Positions 1 to 5,582 of a stretch of DNA of 5,582 nt are shown in pieces. The stretch comes from a virus: IMG/VR virus record IMGVR_UViG_3300009507_000007, positions 1-5,582 of that record; one strand, written 5' to 3'. How positions within the stretch are numbered: position 1 is the first letter of the stretch; every line of letters starts with the position of its first letter. Below the pieces are notes generated by a model. The model was not told the DNA's origin, did not search any database, and worked only from the letters and a program-made list of their open reading frames with translations. Both the position numbers and the translations under genes were made by a program.

Positions 1-123
1 TCAACAAACCCAACGCTAAATGAAGACTTTTATTTATGTTCAGGTTTGCACAAAAAAGTATTTGCCGATCAAATATCAGACAGTTTTGAAATTACATGTC
101 TTACAGATATGTCGATTGTAGGA
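1..123. repeat. Terminal redundancy (copy 1), identical to 5460..5582; circular-assembly overlap
   Basis: Manual base-by-base comparison gives 123/123 identity with the last 123 nt of the window. Confidence 0.97.
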
Positions 124-219
124 AACACCGTATTCGGTGCAGGTCTACAAGAAACTGATGCAACATCTGATTACGACACAATCACTTCACAAGTCGATTC
201 CTCGCGTATCGTTAAGTGA
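1..219 (+). CDS. Major capsid protein, 3' end (continues from 4011..5459 across the circular junction); stop TGA at 217..219
   Basis: Frame 1 is open from position 1 to TGA 217..219, and 1..123 duplicates 5460..5582 in the same frame. The joined ORF (4011..5459 plus 1..219) is 1668 nt, giving 555 aa. Confidence 0.85.
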   Translation, partial: STNPTLNEDFYLCSGLHKKVFADQISDSFEITCLTDMSIVGNTVFGAGLQETDATSDYDTITSQVDSSRIVK

Positions 220-223
220 TAAA

Positions 224-258
224 ATGCGGGGTAGCCCTCCCCTACCCCGCATATATTT
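224..258 (+). terminator. Intrinsic-terminator-like hairpin just downstream of the capsid gene
   Basis: Perfect 11-bp stem ATGCGGGGTAG (224..234) pairs with CTACCCCGCAT (242..252), with a 7-nt loop CCCTCCC. It is followed by ATATTT. The T tract is short and interrupted, so termination is likely partial. Confidence 0.6.
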
Positions 259-273
259 AAAAAGGAAAATGAA

Positions 274-798
274 ATGAACAGAATTAAACACGGCAATATA
301 AATAAATGGTCACAAGCAAAAGCGGGCGACGTAATTGAATTTGCATCAAGCAAACCAAGACATGTAAAGTTTGAAGTAACTGCAAACAGTAATATCGAAT
401 TATGGGTTGCAAACGACAACAAAATGTCTGACGCCGTATTGGTGGGAACATCAAACGGAAAAACAGAAATTCAATATACAGCACCCGCCACAACGTATGT
501 GCAAATTAAAGCTGAAAAATCAGCGGCAGTATTTGTAAATATACCAGATATCGATCAATCAGTACAAAATAGCGATGAACCTAGCTACACGTCTATCGAG
601 CCACGTGTAAACAACAGCACTGAATTTGATCGAATGGTTGCATTTATGAAACACAACGAAACGCAACGTAATGCACAATTAGAAGCTGAAAGATCAGCTT
701 TAAGAGCAGAAGTAGCAAAAATTAAAGCAGAAGCTGAAACAGTAGTTGAAGCGCCACAAGAGGCAGAAACAGAAGATGCAGGAGAAACCCCCGAGTAA
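274..798 (+). CDS. Hypothetical structural or assembly protein, 174 aa (possibly scaffold-like or decoration); function unknown
   Basis: ATG at 274 is preceded by AAGGA (262..266) at 7-nt spacing. The ORF fills the gap between capsid and peptidase. The N-terminal ~95 aa looks beta-rich. The C-terminal ~60 aa is heptad-like and helical with an acidic tail (AQLEAERSALRAEVAKIKAEAETVVEAPQEAETEDAGETPE). Confidence 0.75.
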   Translation: MNRIKHGNINKWSQAKAGDVIEFASSKPRHVKFEVTANSNIELWVANDNKMSDAVLVGTSNGKTEIQYTAPATTYVQIKAEKSAAVFVNIPDIDQSVQNSDEPSYTSIEPRVNNSTEFDRMVAFMKHNETQRNAQLEAERSALRAEVAKIKAEAETVVEAPQEAETEDAGETPE

Positions 799-1312
799 GT
801 TTCTACGCTGGATACGGTTTATAGACCGTATCCAGTTTTGGCACCGTGATGAACTGGTGCATAAAACACACGTAGAAGCGGCAAGATCATTAGCAGAACC
901 TAATGCATCAAAATCACTCTGGGTTAAAATTCAGCAAACAGAAAACGATTATGTAGGGGTACATCCCGATATAATTGAGTTTTGGAAAGCATTTTCCAAA
1001 GCAATGAAGCGACGGAATATACCAATCCGAGCGTTTGAATTTGTACGGTCTGCAGAACGACAACAAGAGTTATTTGATAAAGGCAGAAGCAAAGCATCTG
1101 CCGGATTTGGAGCACATCAGTACGGAATGGCCGTGGATATTATTCACGCAACCCGTGGTTGGAATTTAAGTAAAAAAGAGTGGGATTGCATGGTTGCAAT
1201 CGGCAAAGAAGTTGCACGCAAACGCAATATTAAATTGGACTCAGGACATGATTGGAATTTCTGGGACCCAGCTCATTGGGAAATAGACAATTGGCAAGAC
1301 CAAATCAAATAA
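776..1312 (+). CDS. Zinc metallopeptidase, M15 family (VanY / L-alanyl-D-glutamate peptidase-like); probable peptidoglycan hydrolase (endolysin)
   Basis: Motifs read in translation: RSAERQQELF, then H-x6-D as HQYGMAVD (H at 1115..1117, D at 1136..1138), then the distal His in DPAHWE (H at 1274..1276). This is the His/Asp/His zinc triad arrangement of M15 peptidases. The start is uncertain. The track uses TTG at 746, the first ATG is 776 (AAGAGG 12 nt upstream), and GTG at 857 lies downstream of the hairpin. No N-terminal hydrophobic signal sequence is present. Confidence 0.87.
   Translation: MQEKPPSKFLRWIRFIDRIQFWHRDELVHKTHVEAARSLAEPNASKSLWVKIQQTENDYVGVHPDIIEFWKAFSKAMKRRNIPIRAFEFVRSAERQQELFDKGRSKASAGFGAHQYGMAVDIIHATRGWNLSKKEWDCMVAIGKEVARKRNIKLDSGHDWNFWDPAHWEIDNWQDQIK
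808..840 (+). terminator. Intrinsic-terminator-like hairpin 10 nt after the stop of the 174-aa ORF, located inside the 5' part of the peptidase reading frame
   Basis: Stem CTGGATACGGT (808..818) pairs with ACCGTATCCAG (825..835), 11 bp, with a ~6-nt loop. It is immediately followed by TTTTG (836..840). Confidence 0.55.
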
Positions 1313-1318
1313 AAAACA

Positions 1319-1336
1319 GTAAGTTGAATAACTTAC
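1319..1336 (+). other. Small stem-loop directly after the peptidase stop
   Basis: GTAAGTT (1319..1325), loop GAAT, AACTTAC (1330..1336), giving a 7-bp stem. No downstream T tract, so it is not a canonical terminator. Confidence 0.3.
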
Positions 1337-1340
1337 ACAA

Positions 1341-1383
1341 GGCAAACGGAACGGAAACTCCAAGTATTGGAGTTCCGTTTGCC
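1341..1383 (+). other. Large imperfect hairpin with two alternative foldings in the peptidase-Rep spacer; candidate replication origin or primosome signal, or an RNA structure
   Basis: GGCAAACGGAAC (1341..1352) is the exact reverse complement of GTTCCGTTTGCC (1372..1383), a 12-bp stem. Alternatively AACTCCA (1356..1362) pairs with TGGAGTT (1368..1374), extended by AACGG (1350..1354) with CCGTT (1375..1379) around a bulged A. The duplicated CGGAA allows this register slippage. Confidence 0.5.
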
Positions 1384-1452
1384 GACCAGATATCCCTACC
1401 CTTGTTAAGATATGCATTTAGTGACACCAAACTACAGGAACAGCAGTAAATT

Positions 1453-2487
1453 ATGTGCATAGCACCAGTAAAATTAGATGATGGGACGGAAGTTGGGTGT
1501 CGCGAATGCTGGCAATGCCGCAAACGTAGAGTTAACGATTACGTTGGAAGATGCATTGCCGAAAGTAAGTTTTCGAAAAAAACTTACGCTGTAACATTAA
1601 CGTATAACGGAGACCAAGGCGTTAATGCAGTAACGTTAATTTATAAAGACGTTCAGGATTTTCTTAAAAGACTGCGTAAAAAACATAAATGTCGTTACAT
1701 CGTTACCGGAGAATACGGTAGCGCAAAAGGACGCTCACATTGGCATATAATACTATTCTTTAAGGATAGTTGGCCAGAAGTGACGTCAAACAAAAGGGTA
1801 GATTGGAAATATTGGAAACATGGTTTCAGTTATTTTCAAGAACCGGATTGGAAAGGTTTTGAATATTGCCTGAAATATGTTCTGAAAGATCAGACATCAA
1901 GGCAAAGTGATAGCCATTTGGCTATGAGCAAAAAACCACCACTAGGCCACGAGTTTTTTCAACAGTTAGCGAAGCAACACGTTGAACAAGCCCTCGTCCC
2001 ACAAACATATTTTTATAAGTTTGGCGACGTAAGGGATTATAAAAACAGAGAAAAAGGGTTTATGATGCAAGGAAAAACAAGAGAAAATTTTATGGAAACT
2101 TTTGTCAAAGAGTGGGAGGATAGATACTCTCACGAACCGTTATCGGAATTAGTAACAGATTATTACGACGATATAACGGAAATAGAGTACACGGACGAAG
2201 AACTGTACGAAAGATTGCATTATCAACCTGTAAAATATGTAGAACCATGGATCGAAGGACAAGGAGACGGAATATTTAAAGATATAGAATTAGTAGAAGC
2301 AACGTATGACGGAATACCAATATGTTATTGGGATAATAAAAACAAAACAGGCATACATATAGTGACGGAGAACGACGAATGGCACGAAGAAAGACCCGAA
2401 GTAATAAAAACAATAAAACAAGGACAACAAATACAACGACGGCGATCCTACGCCGAAGTACAGTACGCGGAATTGGACGAAATATAG
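1453..2487 (+). CDS. Rolling-circle replication initiator protein (HUH endonuclease; Microviridae gene A / VP4-like), 344 aa
   Basis: N-terminal Cys cluster MCIAP...GCRECWQCRKRR. Motif I is AVTLTY. Motif II (HUH) is SHWHIILF, with HWH at 1738..1746. Motif III is the double-Tyr EYCLKYVLK (from 1864), which matches the Y-x-x-K-Y-x-x-K pattern of the phiX174 A protein active site. Confidence 0.93.
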   Translation: MCIAPVKLDDGTEVGCRECWQCRKRRVNDYVGRCIAESKFSKKTYAVTLTYNGDQGVNAVTLIYKDVQDFLKRLRKKHKCRYIVTGEYGSAKGRSHWHIILFFKDSWPEVTSNKRVDWKYWKHGFSYFQEPDWKGFEYCLKYVLKDQTSRQSDSHLAMSKKPPLGHEFFQQLAKQHVEQALVPQTYFYKFGDVRDYKNREKGFMMQGKTRENFMETFVKEWEDRYSHEPLSELVTDYYDDITEIEYTDEELYERLHYQPVKYVEPWIEGQGDGIFKDIELVEATYDGIPICYWDNKNKTGIHIVTENDEWHEERPEVIKTIKQGQQIQRRRSYAEVQYAELDEI

Positions 2488-2681
2488 AAATATATAGTCC
2501 ACCCGATGAACAACGGGAGCGAACAGCCGCACCACCTCCCGAACGGGATCTAGCGAAGCGGAAAAAATCCCCGAAAAACTTTACGGTCAGAGATCTGCGG
2601 ATAAGGTGTAAGGACAGACCCAAAAAAAACACCCCTACTGGGGGATCAGGGTCTAAAAAAACATTTGTACCTTGGTGTTAA
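2379..2681 (+). CDS. Candidate overlapping gene: highly basic, low-complexity 100-aa protein (possible DNA-binding or packaging protein); uncertain
   Basis: ATG at 2379 has GGAG (2367..2370) 8 nt upstream. It overlaps the last 109 nt of Rep in a different frame and then occupies the otherwise unassigned 2488..2681. By hand count it has about 28 K/R and about 8 D/E. Caveat: this stretch is T-poor, so long stop-free frames arise by composition alone. Confidence 0.4.
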   Translation: MARRKTRSNKNNKTRTTNTTTAILRRSTVRGIGRNIEIYSPPDEQRERTAAPPPERDLAKRKKSPKNFTVRDLRIRCKDRPKKNTPTGGSGSKKTFVPWC

Positions 2682-2842
2682 AAGTAAAAAAATGATACAT
2701 TTTTAAAAAAAGTGCTTTACATTTACAAATGTACAAAGCTATAAAAACGTATGGGTCAACACAACGAGTCTCATAATGGTATCATAATATATATTATCGG
2801 CCATTGAGCGTTTTGACCCTTCTATAAAAGAAGGAGTAAAAA
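2682..2842 (+). promoter_or_regulatory. Main AT-rich non-coding region with repeated TACATTT/AAATGTA motifs and promoter-like hexamers
   Basis: No credible ORF lies here. TACATTT occurs at 2696..2702 and 2718..2724, ACATTTGTA at 2661..2669, and its inverted copy TACAAATGT at 2724..2732. TCATAAT is duplicated at 2771..2777 and 2782..2788. The region sits directly upstream of the coupled gene block that starts at 2843. Confidence 0.4.
2716..2745 (+). promoter_or_regulatory. Candidate sigma70-like promoter (TTTACA - 18 nt - TATAAA)
   Basis: The -35-like TTTACA is at 2716..2721 and the -10-like TATAAA at 2740..2745, with an 18-nt spacer. It overlaps the TACATTT/AAATGTA palindrome and would drive the 2843..219 gene block. 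Confidence 0.25.
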
Positions 2843-3022
2843 TTGCAATTACTACTAATTAAACAAATTCTAAAACCGATTATCACTAGATGTGGTACTA
2901 TGCTTGGCGCTTCGCTTGCGGGCGCAGGAATAGCAGTTGGTACAACTGAAAGTATCGTTTTGGGATTTACCGCTTTAGCGGGAGTATCGATAGACCTCAT
3001 AACACGGAGGTGGATCAAATGA
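2843..3022 (+). CDS. Unlisted small hydrophobic protein, 59 aa, TTG start; candidate holin-like membrane protein
   Basis: A perfect AAGGAG (2831..2836) lies 6 nt upstream of TTG 2843, and an in-frame TAA precedes at 2837..2839. Translation: (M)QLLLIKQILKPIITRCGTMLGASLAGAGIAVGTTESIVLGFTALAGVSIDLITRRWIK. It has two Gly/Ala-rich hydrophobic stretches and a positively charged C-terminus. The stop TGA (3020..3022) overlaps the next ATG as ATGA. At 59 aa it is one residue below the track cutoff. Confidence 0.55.
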   Translation: MQLLLIKQILKPIITRCGTMLGASLAGAGIAVGTTESIVLGFTALAGVSIDLITRRWIK

Positions 3023-3114
3023 AATTAAAAGACATCATAATAGCAACGATAGCGGGAATAGTAATGGGTTTAGCCCTATTCTCGGATACATTGTTAAATG
3101 CGGGAGTTATATAA
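3019..3114 (+). CDS. Unlisted small single-pass membrane protein, 31 aa
   Basis: GGAGGTG (3006..3012) lies 6 nt upstream of ATG 3019. Translation: MKLKDIIIATIAGIVMGLALFSDTLLNAGVI, with a charged N-terminus followed by a ~17-residue hydrophobic helix. The start overlaps the upstream stop (ATGA), and the stop TAA (3112..3114) is 1 nt before the ATG at 3116. Confidence 0.55.
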   Translation: MKLKDIIIATIAGIVMGLALFSDTLLNAGVI

Positions 3115-3115
3115 T

Positions 3116-3946
3116 ATGTGGGGAGCAATAGCCACAGCGGCAATAGGCGCATTAGGCGCACGCAAAACAGCAAAAGCTATGCAAGGAGCAAATGATTTAG
3201 ATTTAGCTAAATTAAGACGCGAAGCAGAGCAAAATGGGTTTAACCCATTAACAGTACTACGAGCAACAGGCGGTCAAGGTAGTACAAAAGGCCCATCTGG
3301 CAATTTAGCCAGTGGGGCATTTTTTCAAACATTTGCACAAGGAATACCAAGTATACTTGAATCAAATTACAATAAAAAAATGAAACAAGCACAGCTTGCA
3401 AATGTTAACGCAAGTACAGAAAATTTGTTAGCAAGTGCAAAATCAATGTCAGGACAAAGTTCTGCAAACGATTTTATTGAAAAACATGCAGTACCAATGT
3501 TAGTTCCAATCACAACAGGTGGTATGGAAGGTAAGCAAAAAGTACTATATATGGGTATAAACCCAGAATTAATGGAAACCCAATTAAGCGAAGCAATGGG
3601 TTCAATGATAGTACAGGGTTTACAATATTCATATCAAAATGGTGTACCTGCATCTGGTTTTACAAAATTAATAAAGGGGTTACCCCCTGCCCTAAAAAAA
3701 TCATTAAACAATATTATGGGTGAATTTGAAAAAACAGGAAAAATACCAACACAGGCACAAATTACAAAAGCATTAGCATCTGAATTTACTGGCCAACAGT
3801 TAGACAGATCGTTGCAACAATTTGAGGCATTAATTGGACACCAACGTAAGAAACCAAAGTTGGAAAGTGAACCTGATTACTACAGTAAAATATCAGGTGT
3901 GCCAATAAATCAGCAACAAAAAATTATGGAAGAATTATTTCCATAA
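3116..3946 (+). CDS. DNA pilot / minor capsid protein (Microviridae VP2 / gene H-like), 276 aa from ATG 3116 (track start 3098 is an alternative)
   Basis: The N-terminus MWGAIATAAIGALGARK is Gly/Ala-rich and hydrophobic. It is followed by AKLRREAEQNGFNPLTVL, which resembles the AGLNPML-type segment I recall from gokushovirus VP2 proteins. Size and position next to the capsid gene also fit. GGGAG (3102..3106) lies 9 nt upstream of ATG 3116, whereas ATG 3098 has no SD and lies inside the 31-aa ORF. Confidence 0.72.
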   Translation: MWGAIATAAIGALGARKTAKAMQGANDLDLAKLRREAEQNGFNPLTVLRATGGQGSTKGPSGNLASGAFFQTFAQGIPSILESNYNKKMKQAQLANVNASTENLLASAKSMSGQSSANDFIEKHAVPMLVPITTGGMEGKQKVLYMGINPELMETQLSEAMGSMIVQGLQYSYQNGVPASGFTKLIKGLPPALKKSLNNIMGEFEKTGKIPTQAQITKALASEFTGQQLDRSLQQFEALIGHQRKKPKLESEPDYYSKISGVPINQQQKIMEELFP

Positions 3947-4014
3947 TGTGCGCCAAGTGTAAAAAAATACGAAAAATTATAACTAAAATCATTGCAAGGA
4001 GAAAACGCAAATGA
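3946..4014 (+). CDS. Unlisted 22-aa extremely basic micro-ORF (MCAKCKKIRKIITKIIARRKRK); candidate J-like DNA-binding/packaging peptide
   Basis: The ATG 3946..3948 overlaps the pilot stop TAA 3944..3946 (TAATG). Its stop TGA 4012..4014 overlaps the capsid ATG 4011..4013 (ATGA). It exactly fills the pilot-capsid spacer. It has 11 of 22 residues K/R, no acidic residues and a CxxC motif. Its position immediately upstream of the capsid gene mirrors phiX174 gene J upstream of gene F. Confidence 0.55.
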   Translation: MCAKCKKIRKIITKIIARRKRK

Positions 4015-5582
4015 GAATGACTGAACTAATACCAAACAGCCCGATTGCTGTACAGAAATCGCGCCGATCTGCAAAAGGTCGAGTATTGACGTCAGGCGAT
4101 GCAGGAAAAATCCTGCCGTTGAAATACGAATGGCTACACCGTGAAGACGGCGTGCAAAGCGGTAAAATCCGCATGAACGTTGAAATGATGGAAACATCAG
4201 AAATGTTAATGAATGGTGTTGGCGTAACATTGTACGCTCATTTCGTCCCAATGTTAGCATTTGATCGTTTTAACGGATCAATGGACGAATTAAACCGATC
4301 ATATAAAAAAGAAAATGGCGCAGCAGGATCTATAGTACCATTTTTTGAAAGTAATAAGGCTTATTATGAACCTACAGGTAGCGTTTCAAATAATAGTCCG
4401 GGATACGCTCAAATGTATGATACAAATGACGATCACAAGACAAAAACTTTTTATCAAACAATGGGTATTCATACTGAAGCAACATCTTTTAATTCAACAA
4501 TAGTTGAAGCATATAATACAATTGTTAATCATAGACGCAAGGCACGATCAAAATCGTTACCATTAAGAAACGTATTTGATCATAGTTTAGCCGACGCGTT
4601 TTGGATTAATAATGGAATGCAAAATATTGTTCCAGATTATGATCAAAATTTAATTGACGGACAAGTTACACTTGCCGGACTTACATTTCAGGCACCAATT
4701 AAAGCACCTAAATATTTAAGTGATTCAGGTTGGGGTACAGCAACAAATAATGATGCTGTATCAGGAAATGCAATATCACCAGGTATGACTGCTTCAGACG
4801 TAGTAGATCAAGGTGATATGTATTTATTTGATGAAATGTACGCTGAATTAACTACTGGCGGGAACGCAACAATGTCATTAGCTGACATTGAACAAGCACG
4901 TAAAACAGCGGCCTTTGCTAAGTTAAGAGCAAAGTATGATGGTATTGACGACGAACACGTAATTGATTTGCTTATGTCAGGAATTAGAGTTCCTGAAGAG
5001 GCATTAAAGCAACCAATATTATTGGGTCGTCAACGTGCAATGATAGGATTTAACCAACGTTATGCCACAGATGGCGCAAACTTGGATAAGTCAGCAACAA
5101 ATGGTATGGCAACAATTGACATGTCAATTAGAACACCAGCTATGAATACTGGCGGCGTTATAATGATAACTGCCGAAATAGTGCCAGAACAACTTTGGGA
5201 ACGTAAGAAAGATTATTTCTTATATACAACAGATCCAGATACGTTACCAAACTATCTTTCTGATGTATTAGACCCAGAAAAAGTGTCAGTTGTAAAAAAT
5301 GACCACGCTGACGTAAATCACGCAACACCAGATGGAACATTTGGTTATGCACCACTTAACCACCAATGGCAAAGAGATGCGGTAAATGTAGGTGGTAAAT
5401 ATTACCGTCCTGCAAATGACGCATTTGATGAAGACCGTGCAAAAATTTGGACGGCTGAATCAACAAACCCAACGCTAAATGAAGACTTTTATTTATGTTC
5501 AGGTTTGCACAAAAAAGTATTTGCCGATCAAATATCAGACAGTTTTGAAATTACATGTCTTACAGATATGTCGATTGTAGGA
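4011..5582 (+). CDS. Major capsid protein (Microviridae F / VP1-like), 5' portion; runs off the window end and continues at position 124 via the circular junction (555 aa total)
   Basis: AAGGAG (3996..4001) lies 9 nt upstream of ATG 4011. The frame is open to the window end, verified by hand translation. It is the largest gene of the genome. The N-terminal pattern G-K-I-L-P-L ... YAHFVPMLAF parallels the G-x-L-x-P ... F-x-VP-x-R arrangement near the N-terminus of microvirus capsid proteins. It is absent from the ORF track only because it has no in-window stop. Confidence 0.85.
   Translation, partial: MRMTELIPNSPIAVQKSRRSAKGRVLTSGDAGKILPLKYEWLHREDGVQSGKIRMNVEMMETSEMLMNGVGVTLYAHFVPMLAFDRFNGSMDELNRSYKKENGAAGSIVPFFESNKAYYEPTGSVSNNSPGYAQMYDTNDDHKTKTFYQTMGIHTEATSFNSTIVEAYNTIVNHRRKARSKSLPLRNVFDHSLADAFWINNGMQNIVPDYDQNLIDGQVTLAGLTFQAPIKAPKYLSDSGWGTATNNDAVSGNAISPGMTASDVVDQGDMYLFDEMYAELTTGGNATMSLADIEQARKTAAFAKLRAKYDGIDDEHVIDLLMSGIRVPEEALKQPILLGRQRAMIGFNQRYATDGANLDKSATNGMATIDMSIRTPAMNTGGVIMITAEIVPEQLWERKKDYFLYTTDPDTLPNYLSDVLDPEKVSVVKNDHADVNHATPDGTFGYAPLNHQWQRDAVNVGGKYYRPANDAFDEDRAKIWTAESTNPTLNEDFYLCSGLHKKVFADQISDSFEITCLTDMSIVG
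5460..5582. repeat. Terminal redundancy (copy 2), identical to 1..123
   Basis: Same comparison. Position 5460 is a codon start of the capsid ORF and position 1 continues the same frame. Confidence 0.97.

Follow-up and report, generated by a model that had tools for sequence, protein, structure and literature searches.

The 5,582-nucleotide (nt) stretch of viral DNA analysed here (IMG/VR record IMGVR_UViG_3300009507_000007, positions 1 to 5,582; hereafter the window) is a complete circular microvirus genome. It carries a gene for an M15 zinc peptidase, a predicted endolysin without an export signal, together with two tiny membrane-protein genes that we call tm59 and tm31. On balance, the evidence leans towards a split holin–endolysin system in which tm59 is the holin and tm31 is a clade-specific partner. 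A first-pass annotation of the same DNA had described the peptidase and reasoned that it would need a separate export or release factor. That reasoning is sound, and the window holds a plausible candidate in tm59 with tm31; both are conserved genes that were missed at the time and are undescribed as lysis factors in the literature that we examined. The nearest annotated relatives by BLASTN are the Roseobacter phages CRPss-151/152/153/155 (70-73% identity over 55-65% of the genome), and closer metagenomic relatives are numerous in IMG/VR, with peptidase identity of up to 100%. The features that bear on the proposal are these:

776-1312 (open reading frame (ORF) 746-1312), + strand: M15 (LAS-fold) zinc peptidase gene, 178 amino acids (aa), predicted cytoplasmic endolysin
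746-775, + strand: in-frame stretch before the ATG, part of the ORF-finder call, probably untranslated as peptidase in view of stop codons in relatives
797-844, + strand: cationic, aromatic-rich N-terminal helix KFLRWIRFIDRIQFWH, residues 8-23, with conserved LRW.RF.DRI; absent from T5-type endolysins
1046-1075, + strand: RSAERQQELF, with the invariant Arg R91 (178-aa numbering), the substrate-binding Arg upstream of the first His
1115-1138, + strand: HQYGMAVD, H-x6-D zinc ligands H114 and D121
1265-1282, + strand: DPAHWE, catalytic Asp D164 and third zinc ligand H167 (DPAH at 1265-1276)
2818-2834, + strand: hairpin CCTTCT-ATAAA-AGAAGG
2843-3022, + strand: tm59, a 59-aa two-helix hairpin membrane protein with a TTG start, candidate holin
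3019-3114, + strand: tm31, a 31-aa single-pass membrane peptide

The peptidase ORF is present on the + strand with the translation given in the first-pass annotation, and the three motifs quoted there lie at the positions listed above. Its assignment to the M15 zinc peptidases, made from the layout of the ligands, is borne out by both sequence and structure searches. Using phmmer against PDB sequences, we found LysECD7 (1.1e-8), the RB49 peptidase (4.6e-8) and ChiX (5.6e-6); with a 29-sequence profile the E values improved to 8e-14 - 4e-12, and LysB4 and PLY500 also matched. The protein matched the endolysin family phrog_465 in PHROGs (4.5e-16). Pfam scores lay below the cut-offs (VanY, 24.4 bits against 25; Peptidase_M15_4, 18.1 against 25), and many homologues carry precomputed PF13539 or PF02557 matches. 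Foldseek searches with the AlphaFold (AF2) model (predicted local distance difference test (pLDDT) 83.5) returned, in order, LysECD7 (E 1.8e-7, template modelling score 0.76 on the target), ChiX, RB49, PLY500, LysB4, VanY/LdcB and the T5 endolysin, with hedgehog domains lower in the list; all 15 PDB matches at E<=0.001 were M15 enzymes. The Arg, His, Asp, Asp and His of the active site are invariant in an alignment of 29 homologues, and D164 and H167 align with the corresponding residues of LysECD7. Differences from relatives are mostly synonymous (22 synonymous and 1 non-synonymous in L005; 27 and 4 in L006), which argues that this is a real gene and not a chance ORF. From ATG 776 the ORF spans 537 nt with its stop, or 9.8% of the 5459-nt genome, close to the tenth that had been estimated.

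The best explanation of these similarities is that 776-1312 encodes a soluble M15C-like zinc endopeptidase, closest to the L-Ala-D-Glu endolysins. The gene very probably encodes an active enzyme. We infer L-Ala-D-Glu specificity only by analogy, because the nearest solved relatives, the L-alanyl-D-glutamate endopeptidases of double-stranded DNA (dsDNA) phages, are just 21-26% identical to it. The comparison enzymes LysECD7 (8q2g), RB49 (23ri), T5 EndoT5 (2mxz), PLY500 (2vo9) and LysB4 (6akv) share its fold and its R / H-x6-D / D-x2-H arrangement, and all are endolysins that, like the window's enzyme, have no signal peptide. They differ from the microviral M15 proteins in lacking about 52 extra N-terminal residues, three helices, and the LRW.RF.DRI and EAARSLA motifs. 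Among the microviral homologues, P0009, P0010, P0013, P0020 and P0022 contain insertions of about 20-42 residues inside H-x6-D (alignment A1 columns 141-182), which would disrupt the usual spacing of the zinc ligands.

Three in-frame starts had been put forward for the peptidase, TTG 746, ATG 776 and GTG 857. All are indeed in frame, and comparison with relatives leaves ATG 776 as the start. In L005, L006, L007, L008, L015, L016, L047 and L049 the interval from the TTG position to the ATG contains one or two stop codons, which excludes TTG 746, and GTG 857 is missing from several relatives and was rejected because it is not conserved. ATG 776, by contrast, is kept in every relative that has the 5' end on its contig, the CRPss isolates included. 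We therefore take the protein to be 178 aa long. [quoted passage not shown]

The N terminus that follows is basic rather than hydrophobic. Its maximum Kyte-Doolittle mean for 17 residues, taken across residues 1-81, is 0.29, compared with 1.95 for tm59 and 2.48 for tm31 from the same genome. The first 50 residues are charged and aromatic and contain no hydrophobic stretch of the kind found in signal-arrest-release (SAR) endolysins, and hydropathy analysis of the N terminus revealed no RR-type motif with a hydrophobic core. The absence of a hydrophobic N-terminal segment means that there is neither a signal peptide nor a SAR domain, as the first-pass annotation had stated. Residues 1-52, which have no counterpart in the dsDNA-phage enzymes, are modelled as three helices (8-23, at low confidence; 32-39, confidently packed; and 48-55). 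The first carries a charge of +3 to +6 in most homologues and is rich in Trp, Phe and Ile. We considered whether it is an exceptional amphipathic helix that could serve as a membrane-crossing device and rejected this: 136 of 500 shuffled versions of the helix reached its hydrophobic moment of 0.43, and most homologues gave a similar picture. Although cationic and conserved, the segment has no demonstrable amphipathicity beyond what its composition gives, and we make no claim that it is membrane-active.

tm59 has a strong Shine-Dalgarno sequence (SD), GAAGGAG (2830-2836), placed 6 nt before its TTG start, and relatives use TTG or GTG. The ATG of tm31 at 3019 overlaps the tm59 stop (ATGA), and the tm31 stop lies 1 nt before the ATG of the DNA pilot gene at 3116. 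A longer tm31 ORF (3010-3114) is excluded by a stop codon just before ATG 3019 in relatives. Synonymous and non-synonymous differences in tm59 number 15 and 0 in L006, 12 and 0 in L005, and 28 and 10 in L037 (synonymous divergence (dS) 1.15); in tm31 they number 8 and 1 in L006. Both genes are thus under purifying selection, which is strong for tm59. The tm59 frame is open in 37 of 38 diverged relatives. Its non-synonymous divergence (dN) within the clade is 0.07-0.09, compared with 0.28-0.39 for the capsid and peptidase, and reaches 0.53 against the CRPss phages, from which tm59 is strongly diverged. tm31 is confined to the marine clade. The pair is syntenic in the CRPss phages, and both genes are annotated in CRPss-251 (tm31 counterpart at 1756-1845). 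In CRPss-152 (L001, ~1616-1711) we found an unannotated 31-aa ORF with a single transmembrane domain (TMD), MRKHFTDIAHGLVAGTIVSVVVFGPTVLGWY, and CRPss-151 (L002) has one in the same place; this tm31 counterpart shares bases with the stop of CDS_03 and runs up to the pilot start.

The model of tm59 (pLDDT 93.6) consists of two long helices, residues 2-27 and 32-58, joined by a tight turn. The tip (residues ~17-50) is hydrophobic and rich in Gly and Ala, and basic residues stand at both ends, including the C-terminal tail TRRWIK, so that both termini would be cytoplasmic. In size (59 aa), in its two helices of hydropathy 1.95 and in its charged tail, tm59 is built as holins are. tm31 has one strongly hydrophobic helix (2.48) behind a short charged N terminus. 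No other conserved transmembrane ORF was found on the coding strand of the window; the sole embedded hydrophobic ORF, at 4345-4503, has no alignable relatives. We looked for an embedded lysis gene of the phiX174 E type and did not find one, tm59 and tm31 both being free-standing. A dual-start holin/antiholin motif in tm59 was rejected because Met20 is not conserved (Ile in relatives). No frame of the + strand contained a lipobox-like motif, and no spanin candidate was found in the window.

To follow the tm59 family, we searched 1.84 billion representative proteins with its profile and obtained 72 hits, all of 54-87 aa save for a few long repetitive proteins; the same profile run on a 5.8-billion-protein set returned only members already known. 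P12 is invariant in the family and R16, G18, G29 and D51 are near-invariant, D51 lying in the second helix. All nine of the distant members that we looked up are on short, microvirus-sized contigs. Where their contig includes the next gene, its start coincides with the stop of the tm59-family gene or closely follows it, and on full-length contigs this next gene sits between that gene and the capsid gene, which is the place of the pilot gene. Rhizobium and tortoise microviruses have a family member in the same place.

Co-distribution of the two families was scored with M15 and tm59-family hidden Markov models (HMMs), run both on ORFs defined by a start codon and on stop-to-stop translations. 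A tm59-family gene was found in every complete genome with M15 that we examined; contigs of 5 kb or more that seemed to be exceptions either had a gene truncated at a contig end (L020, L075) or were not microviral (L055, L056, L058, L060). Four complete relatives that lack M15, CRPss-154 and the Ciona-gut genomes MH572490, MH572491 and MH572517, also lack the tm59 family, in stop-to-stop ORFs too, and keep the pilot gene. tm59 thus seems to follow the enzyme and not the pilot. We rejected the close relative L086 (IMGVR_UViG_3300031594_000726) as a further case of joint loss: its tm59 frame is intact, with ATC in place of the TTG start, and only its M15 is clearly damaged. That M15 has lost 24 residues in frame, among them the catalytic Arg and the first zinc His, and its third ligand is altered from DPAH to DPSR (loci 2971-3420 and 5021-5212), which reflects either a decaying lysis module or an artefact of assembly or sequencing.

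The M15-less relatives have small ORFs of their own. In the Ciona genomes, an ORF in the tm59-family slot ends just upstream of the pilot start or overlaps it (L121 4804-5073 in MH572491, L122 4573-4803 in MH572490 and L123 4102-4473 in MH572517). It contains a hydrophobic segment that ends in a lipobox-like L-T-G-C and could encode a lipoprotein lysis protein in the same slot. CRPss-154 (L061) has a 34-aa ORF with an N-terminal hydrophobic helix that overlaps the end of an HNH gene (1657-1761) and, in the slot that M15 occupies in relatives, a 191-aa protein with no Pfam match (5145-5720). No relatives of the CRPss-154 capsid were found in IMG/VR.

Similarity of the tm59 family to annotated holins is remote but recurrent. 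The only Pfam match that recurs in the family is PF23987 (Phage_holin_10), which 8 of 68 members hit at E<=0.01. The member from Rhizobium phage RHph_TM1_7A, which matches the tm59-family HMM at 3e-6, scored 25.6 bits where PF23987 requires 27 (E 1.3e-5) and aligned to positions 4-52 of the 52-position profile; the family also gave a sub-threshold match to the PHROGs holin family phrog_6116 (0.004). These scores suggest a remote similarity to PF23987, not membership. As in class II holins and PF23987 (the Pam3 gp28 family), tm59 is a small protein whose two membrane helices leave its termini on the same side and whose tail is basic. It differs from them in that no family member reaches the cut-off, in that tm59 is not beside the endolysin gene and in being only a putative hole former.

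The start of tm59 is preceded by a 6-bp hairpin whose 3' arm forms most of the SD (-12 kcal/mol, z -2.5). In 17 distinct relatives 99% of cells are paired, with the loop and flanks varying; one pair changes from U-A to A-U in three sequences, and there is one G-U change. This is weak evidence that the hairpin and the TTG start would limit tm59 translation, which would fit dose-timed lysis. About 45 nt upstream of tm59 we also observed ATATTATCGG (2791-2800). Most of the marine clades that we examined (L040, L045, L062, L105-L107) carry the motif A[TC]ATTATN[CG]G no more than about 50 nt ahead of the tm59-family coding sequence, and CRPss-152 and the terrestrial relatives lack it; it may represent a -10 promoter element or belong to the replication origin. 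A promoter-like site was predicted at 2756-2785.

In the holin–endolysin system that we propose, the M15 peptidase would be made in the cytoplasm without an export signal and would serve as the phage endolysin. tm59 would be a helical-hairpin protein of the inner membrane, its two termini lying in the cytoplasm. As a class-II-type holin it would build up and eventually permeabilise the membrane, opening holes that pass the folded 20-kDa enzyme. tm31, translationally coupled to tm59, would act as its partner or modulator. The hairpin that buries the ribosome-binding site and the weak TTG start would hold down the synthesis of tm59 and thereby contribute to the timing of lysis.

This arrangement has precedents, each of which differs from it in some respect. 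Signal-less endolysins of dsDNA phages need a holin. ChiX of Serratia marcescens (5opz), the second-best structural match of the window's M15, is reportedly a signal-less L-Ala-D-Glu endopeptidase that is exported via the holin-like ChiW; ChiX–ChiW is, however, a bacterial chitinase secretion system and not a phage lysis system, and ChiW is likened to tm59 by description only. Gene E of phiX174 provides single-gene lysis by inhibiting MraY. It resembles tm59 as a small membrane protein, here with a known lysis function in a microvirus, but has no enzyme partner, lies out of frame within gene D and has one N-terminal TMD, whereas the window carries a muralytic enzyme. Another comparison is Ebor, a Rhodobacter microvirus (PP754850; PMC11980548), whose purified lysin Gp7 degrades peptidoglycan in a zymogram. 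Like the window, Ebor is an alphaproteobacterial microvirus that devotes a gene to a peptidoglycan hydrolase and encodes a basic protein across the 3' end of rep. Two genes upstream of its pilot gene lies Gp1 (45 aa, listed only as 'membrane protein'), which did not match tm59-family profiles (E 0.08-0.2). Gp7 is the only experimentally verified peptidoglycan hydrolase that we found in the microvirus literature. It is not an M15 enzyme (hhalign probability 0.2, no Pfam hit), and we rejected it as experimental proof for the M15 family; different lineages of alphaproteobacterial microviruses thus carry unrelated lysins. By eye, Gp7 (L124 3581-4021) has the look of an amidase.

Several observations weigh against the proposed system. 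The tm59-family gene never adjoins M15 and always lies directly upstream of the pilot gene, which equally fits a pilot role in entry or assembly. In the window the M15 gene and tm59 are about 1.5 kb apart, or about 3.2 kb the other way round the circle, so that the two do not form an adjacent lysis cassette; non-adjacency weighs less in a 5.5-kb genome coded on a single strand than in a tailed phage. The window's tm59 had no direct match to a holin family in Pfam or PHROGs, and Foldseek found no significant match for it among viral models (best E 0.1). The link to PF23987 is indirect and below threshold, and it joins short membrane proteins, for which composition inflates scores; we found no experimental basis for the 'holin' label of PF23987 itself. 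The hydrophobic segments of tm59 are short (~16 residues), rich in Gly and Ala, and pinholin-like, and pinholin holes are too small for a folded enzyme. Independent absences are few (CRPss-154 and one Ciona clade), and the co-distribution is confounded by phylogeny. Only one of the six hairpin pairs covaries, and the 3' arm would be conserved anyway because it is the SD. Finally, the literature that we examined reports no activity for any microviral M15.

The main alternative is that M15 is the endolysin and that tm59 and tm31 are non-lytic, serving the pilot, entry or assembly, or superinfection exclusion. The enzyme would then be released through membrane damage by over-produced pilot protein, by a host factor or by an unrecognised protein. 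Gene order speaks for this, as the tm59-family gene is followed at once, often with an overlap, by a next gene that is the pilot gene where it can be identified, and is never beside M15. In Ebor, from a sister subfamily, a small membrane protein is likewise encoded upstream of the pilot gene and is not called a holin by its authors, and the pilot protein itself has a Gly/Ala-rich hydrophobic N terminus. However, the M15-less relatives keep the pilot without tm59, which argues that the pilot does not depend on tm59 as a partner. The genome offers no other means of releasing the enzyme, and the similarity of tm59, weak but repeated, is to a holin-labelled family and not to a structural one. We regard a non-lytic tm59 as unlikely.

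We give still less weight to the idea that tm59, with or without tm31, is the primary lysis effector, acting by depolarisation or by blocking wall synthesis, and that M15 merely speeds or completes wall breakdown. Within the clade, few proteins of the genome are as constrained as tm59, which would fit a conserved host target, and microviruses are otherwise known for single-gene lysis by phiX174 E. However, strict co-occurrence with M15 would not be expected if tm59 sufficed, and tm59 shows no likeness to E, with its N-terminal TMD and its position embedded in another gene. The low divergence of tm59 in L037/L040/L041/L054 is also partly due to module exchange, with a dS of 0.6-1.2 that is below that of most genes there.

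Quite improbable, too, is that M15 is mainly or also a virion-associated entry enzyme with its basic N-terminal extension as a packaging or DNA-binding signal: the extension of at least 50 residues is absent from dsDNA-phage homologues, phi6 uses one lytic enzyme for entry and exit, and the unrelated Ebor lysin Gp7 was detected in trace amounts in purified virions, but a T=1 capsid with 5.5 kb of single-stranded DNA (ssDNA) leaves little room, and CRPss-154, which has a homologous capsid and pilot, infects the same Roseobacter host strain without M15, so that entry does not need the enzyme.

Returning to the holin–endolysin system, a broader version of it can be put forward only tentatively. 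In alphaproteobacterial microviruses of this group, multi-component lysis of this type would be encoded in about 5.5 kb, and tm59 would represent a microvirus-only, pilot-coupled family, the first holin family of icosahedral ssDNA phages, throttled by its TTG start and hairpin and, in the marine clade, paired with tm31. In this version the N-terminal extension of M15 would have a role of its own, such as docking to the holin or the membrane, or disrupting the outer membrane in place of the missing spanins.

The remaining genes place the window among known microviruses. Its first 123 bases recur at its end, which indicates a circular genome of 5459 nt with 123 nt of terminal redundancy, and all genes are on the + strand:

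274-798, + strand: conserved 174-aa protein with no assigned function, directly upstream of the peptidase gene and overlapping it
1453-2487, + strand: replication initiator (rep; PF23343 1.8e-18; phrog_942 2.8e-38)
2379-2681, + strand: very basic 100-aa ORF in another frame, overlapping the 3' end of rep
3116-3946, + strand: DNA pilot protein (VP2-like), likely start ATG 3116
from 4011, wrapping round to 219, + strand: major capsid gene

For the pilot gene, ATG 3116 is a likelier start than ATG 3098 of the ORF list: GGGAG lies 9 nt upstream, the codon comes directly after the tm31 stop, and the N terminus read from it (MWGAIATAAIGALGA) resembles those of relatives. The gene order is common to the window and CRPss-151/152/153/155, and the capsid and rep proteins are 75-76% and 65-66% identical, respectively, to those of CRPss-151/152. 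The M15 of the CRPss phages (PP558214-PP558218) is an orthologue, with 57% aa identity over residues 26-187; it occupies the same position after the capsid and 174-aa genes and has the same ATG and N-terminal motif. The window's lineage is nonetheless distinct, in its G+C content (~39%, compared with 44-45% in the CRPss isolates) and in the divergence of tm59; the second small ORF is unannotated in CRPss-151/152. The authors of the CRPss study placed CRPss-151/152/153/155 in the proposed subfamily 'Occultatumvirinae' (PMC11499846). Judged by its small circular genome and by VP1, VP2 and VP4 proteins related to those of described members, the window is a marine 'Occultatumvirinae' microvirus.

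The very basic 100-aa ORF is kept in relatives (83-97% identity within the clade; 41-45% in the CRPss phages, where it is annotated as hypothetical), and it parallels Ebor Gp10, a virion protein proposed to neutralise ssDNA, in position and charge. We also observed signs of mosaicism. In L037/L040/L041/L054 the capsid, rep and peptidase are only 58-67% identical to those of the window, with dS mostly saturated, whereas the tm59–tm31 module is 74-97% identical, with a dS of 0.6-1.2. The CRPss phages show the reverse pattern, with a capsid that is 75% identical and tm59 the most diverged. From these comparisons, the tm59–tm31 module appears to have been swapped between lineages.

The first-pass annotation had thought that the presence of M15 was probably not new in itself, and the literature agrees. 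M15 genes in microviruses were reported in 2012 and proposed to be endolysins (PMC3394797), and in 2024 most 'Occultatumvirinae' were found to carry an M15 peptidase, with subgroups 6 and 7 lacking it; M15 was discussed there as the lysis gene of the CRPss phages (PMC11499846). GenBank annotates the M15 orthologue in CRPss-151/152/251, and the Rhizobium microvirus paper lists 'endolysin' among the basic genes of those phages. The window's M15 is another member of this published set. The words 'holin' and 'transmembrane' are absent from the CRPss (PMC11499846), Sulfitobacter and Rhizobium microvirus papers, the first of which says nothing of membrane proteins either, and the published accounts of microvirus M15 genes and lysins that we examined, that of Ebor included, mention no holin.

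Microvirus lysis is understood only for phiX174 E, and M15 genes have been reported in several microvirus groups and are widespread in one that is abundant in the oceans. The microvirus literature that we examined gives no account of how a signal-less M15 leaves the cytoplasm. With a conserved, microvirus-specific membrane protein that is present or missing along with the enzyme, the question of release can be addressed directly using two or three small genes. The window is of interest less for its peptidase than because two tiny genes open this question to experiment. If the holin–endolysin proposal is true, this strategy would not be confined to large dsDNA phages, and tm59 would add a compact family of holins.

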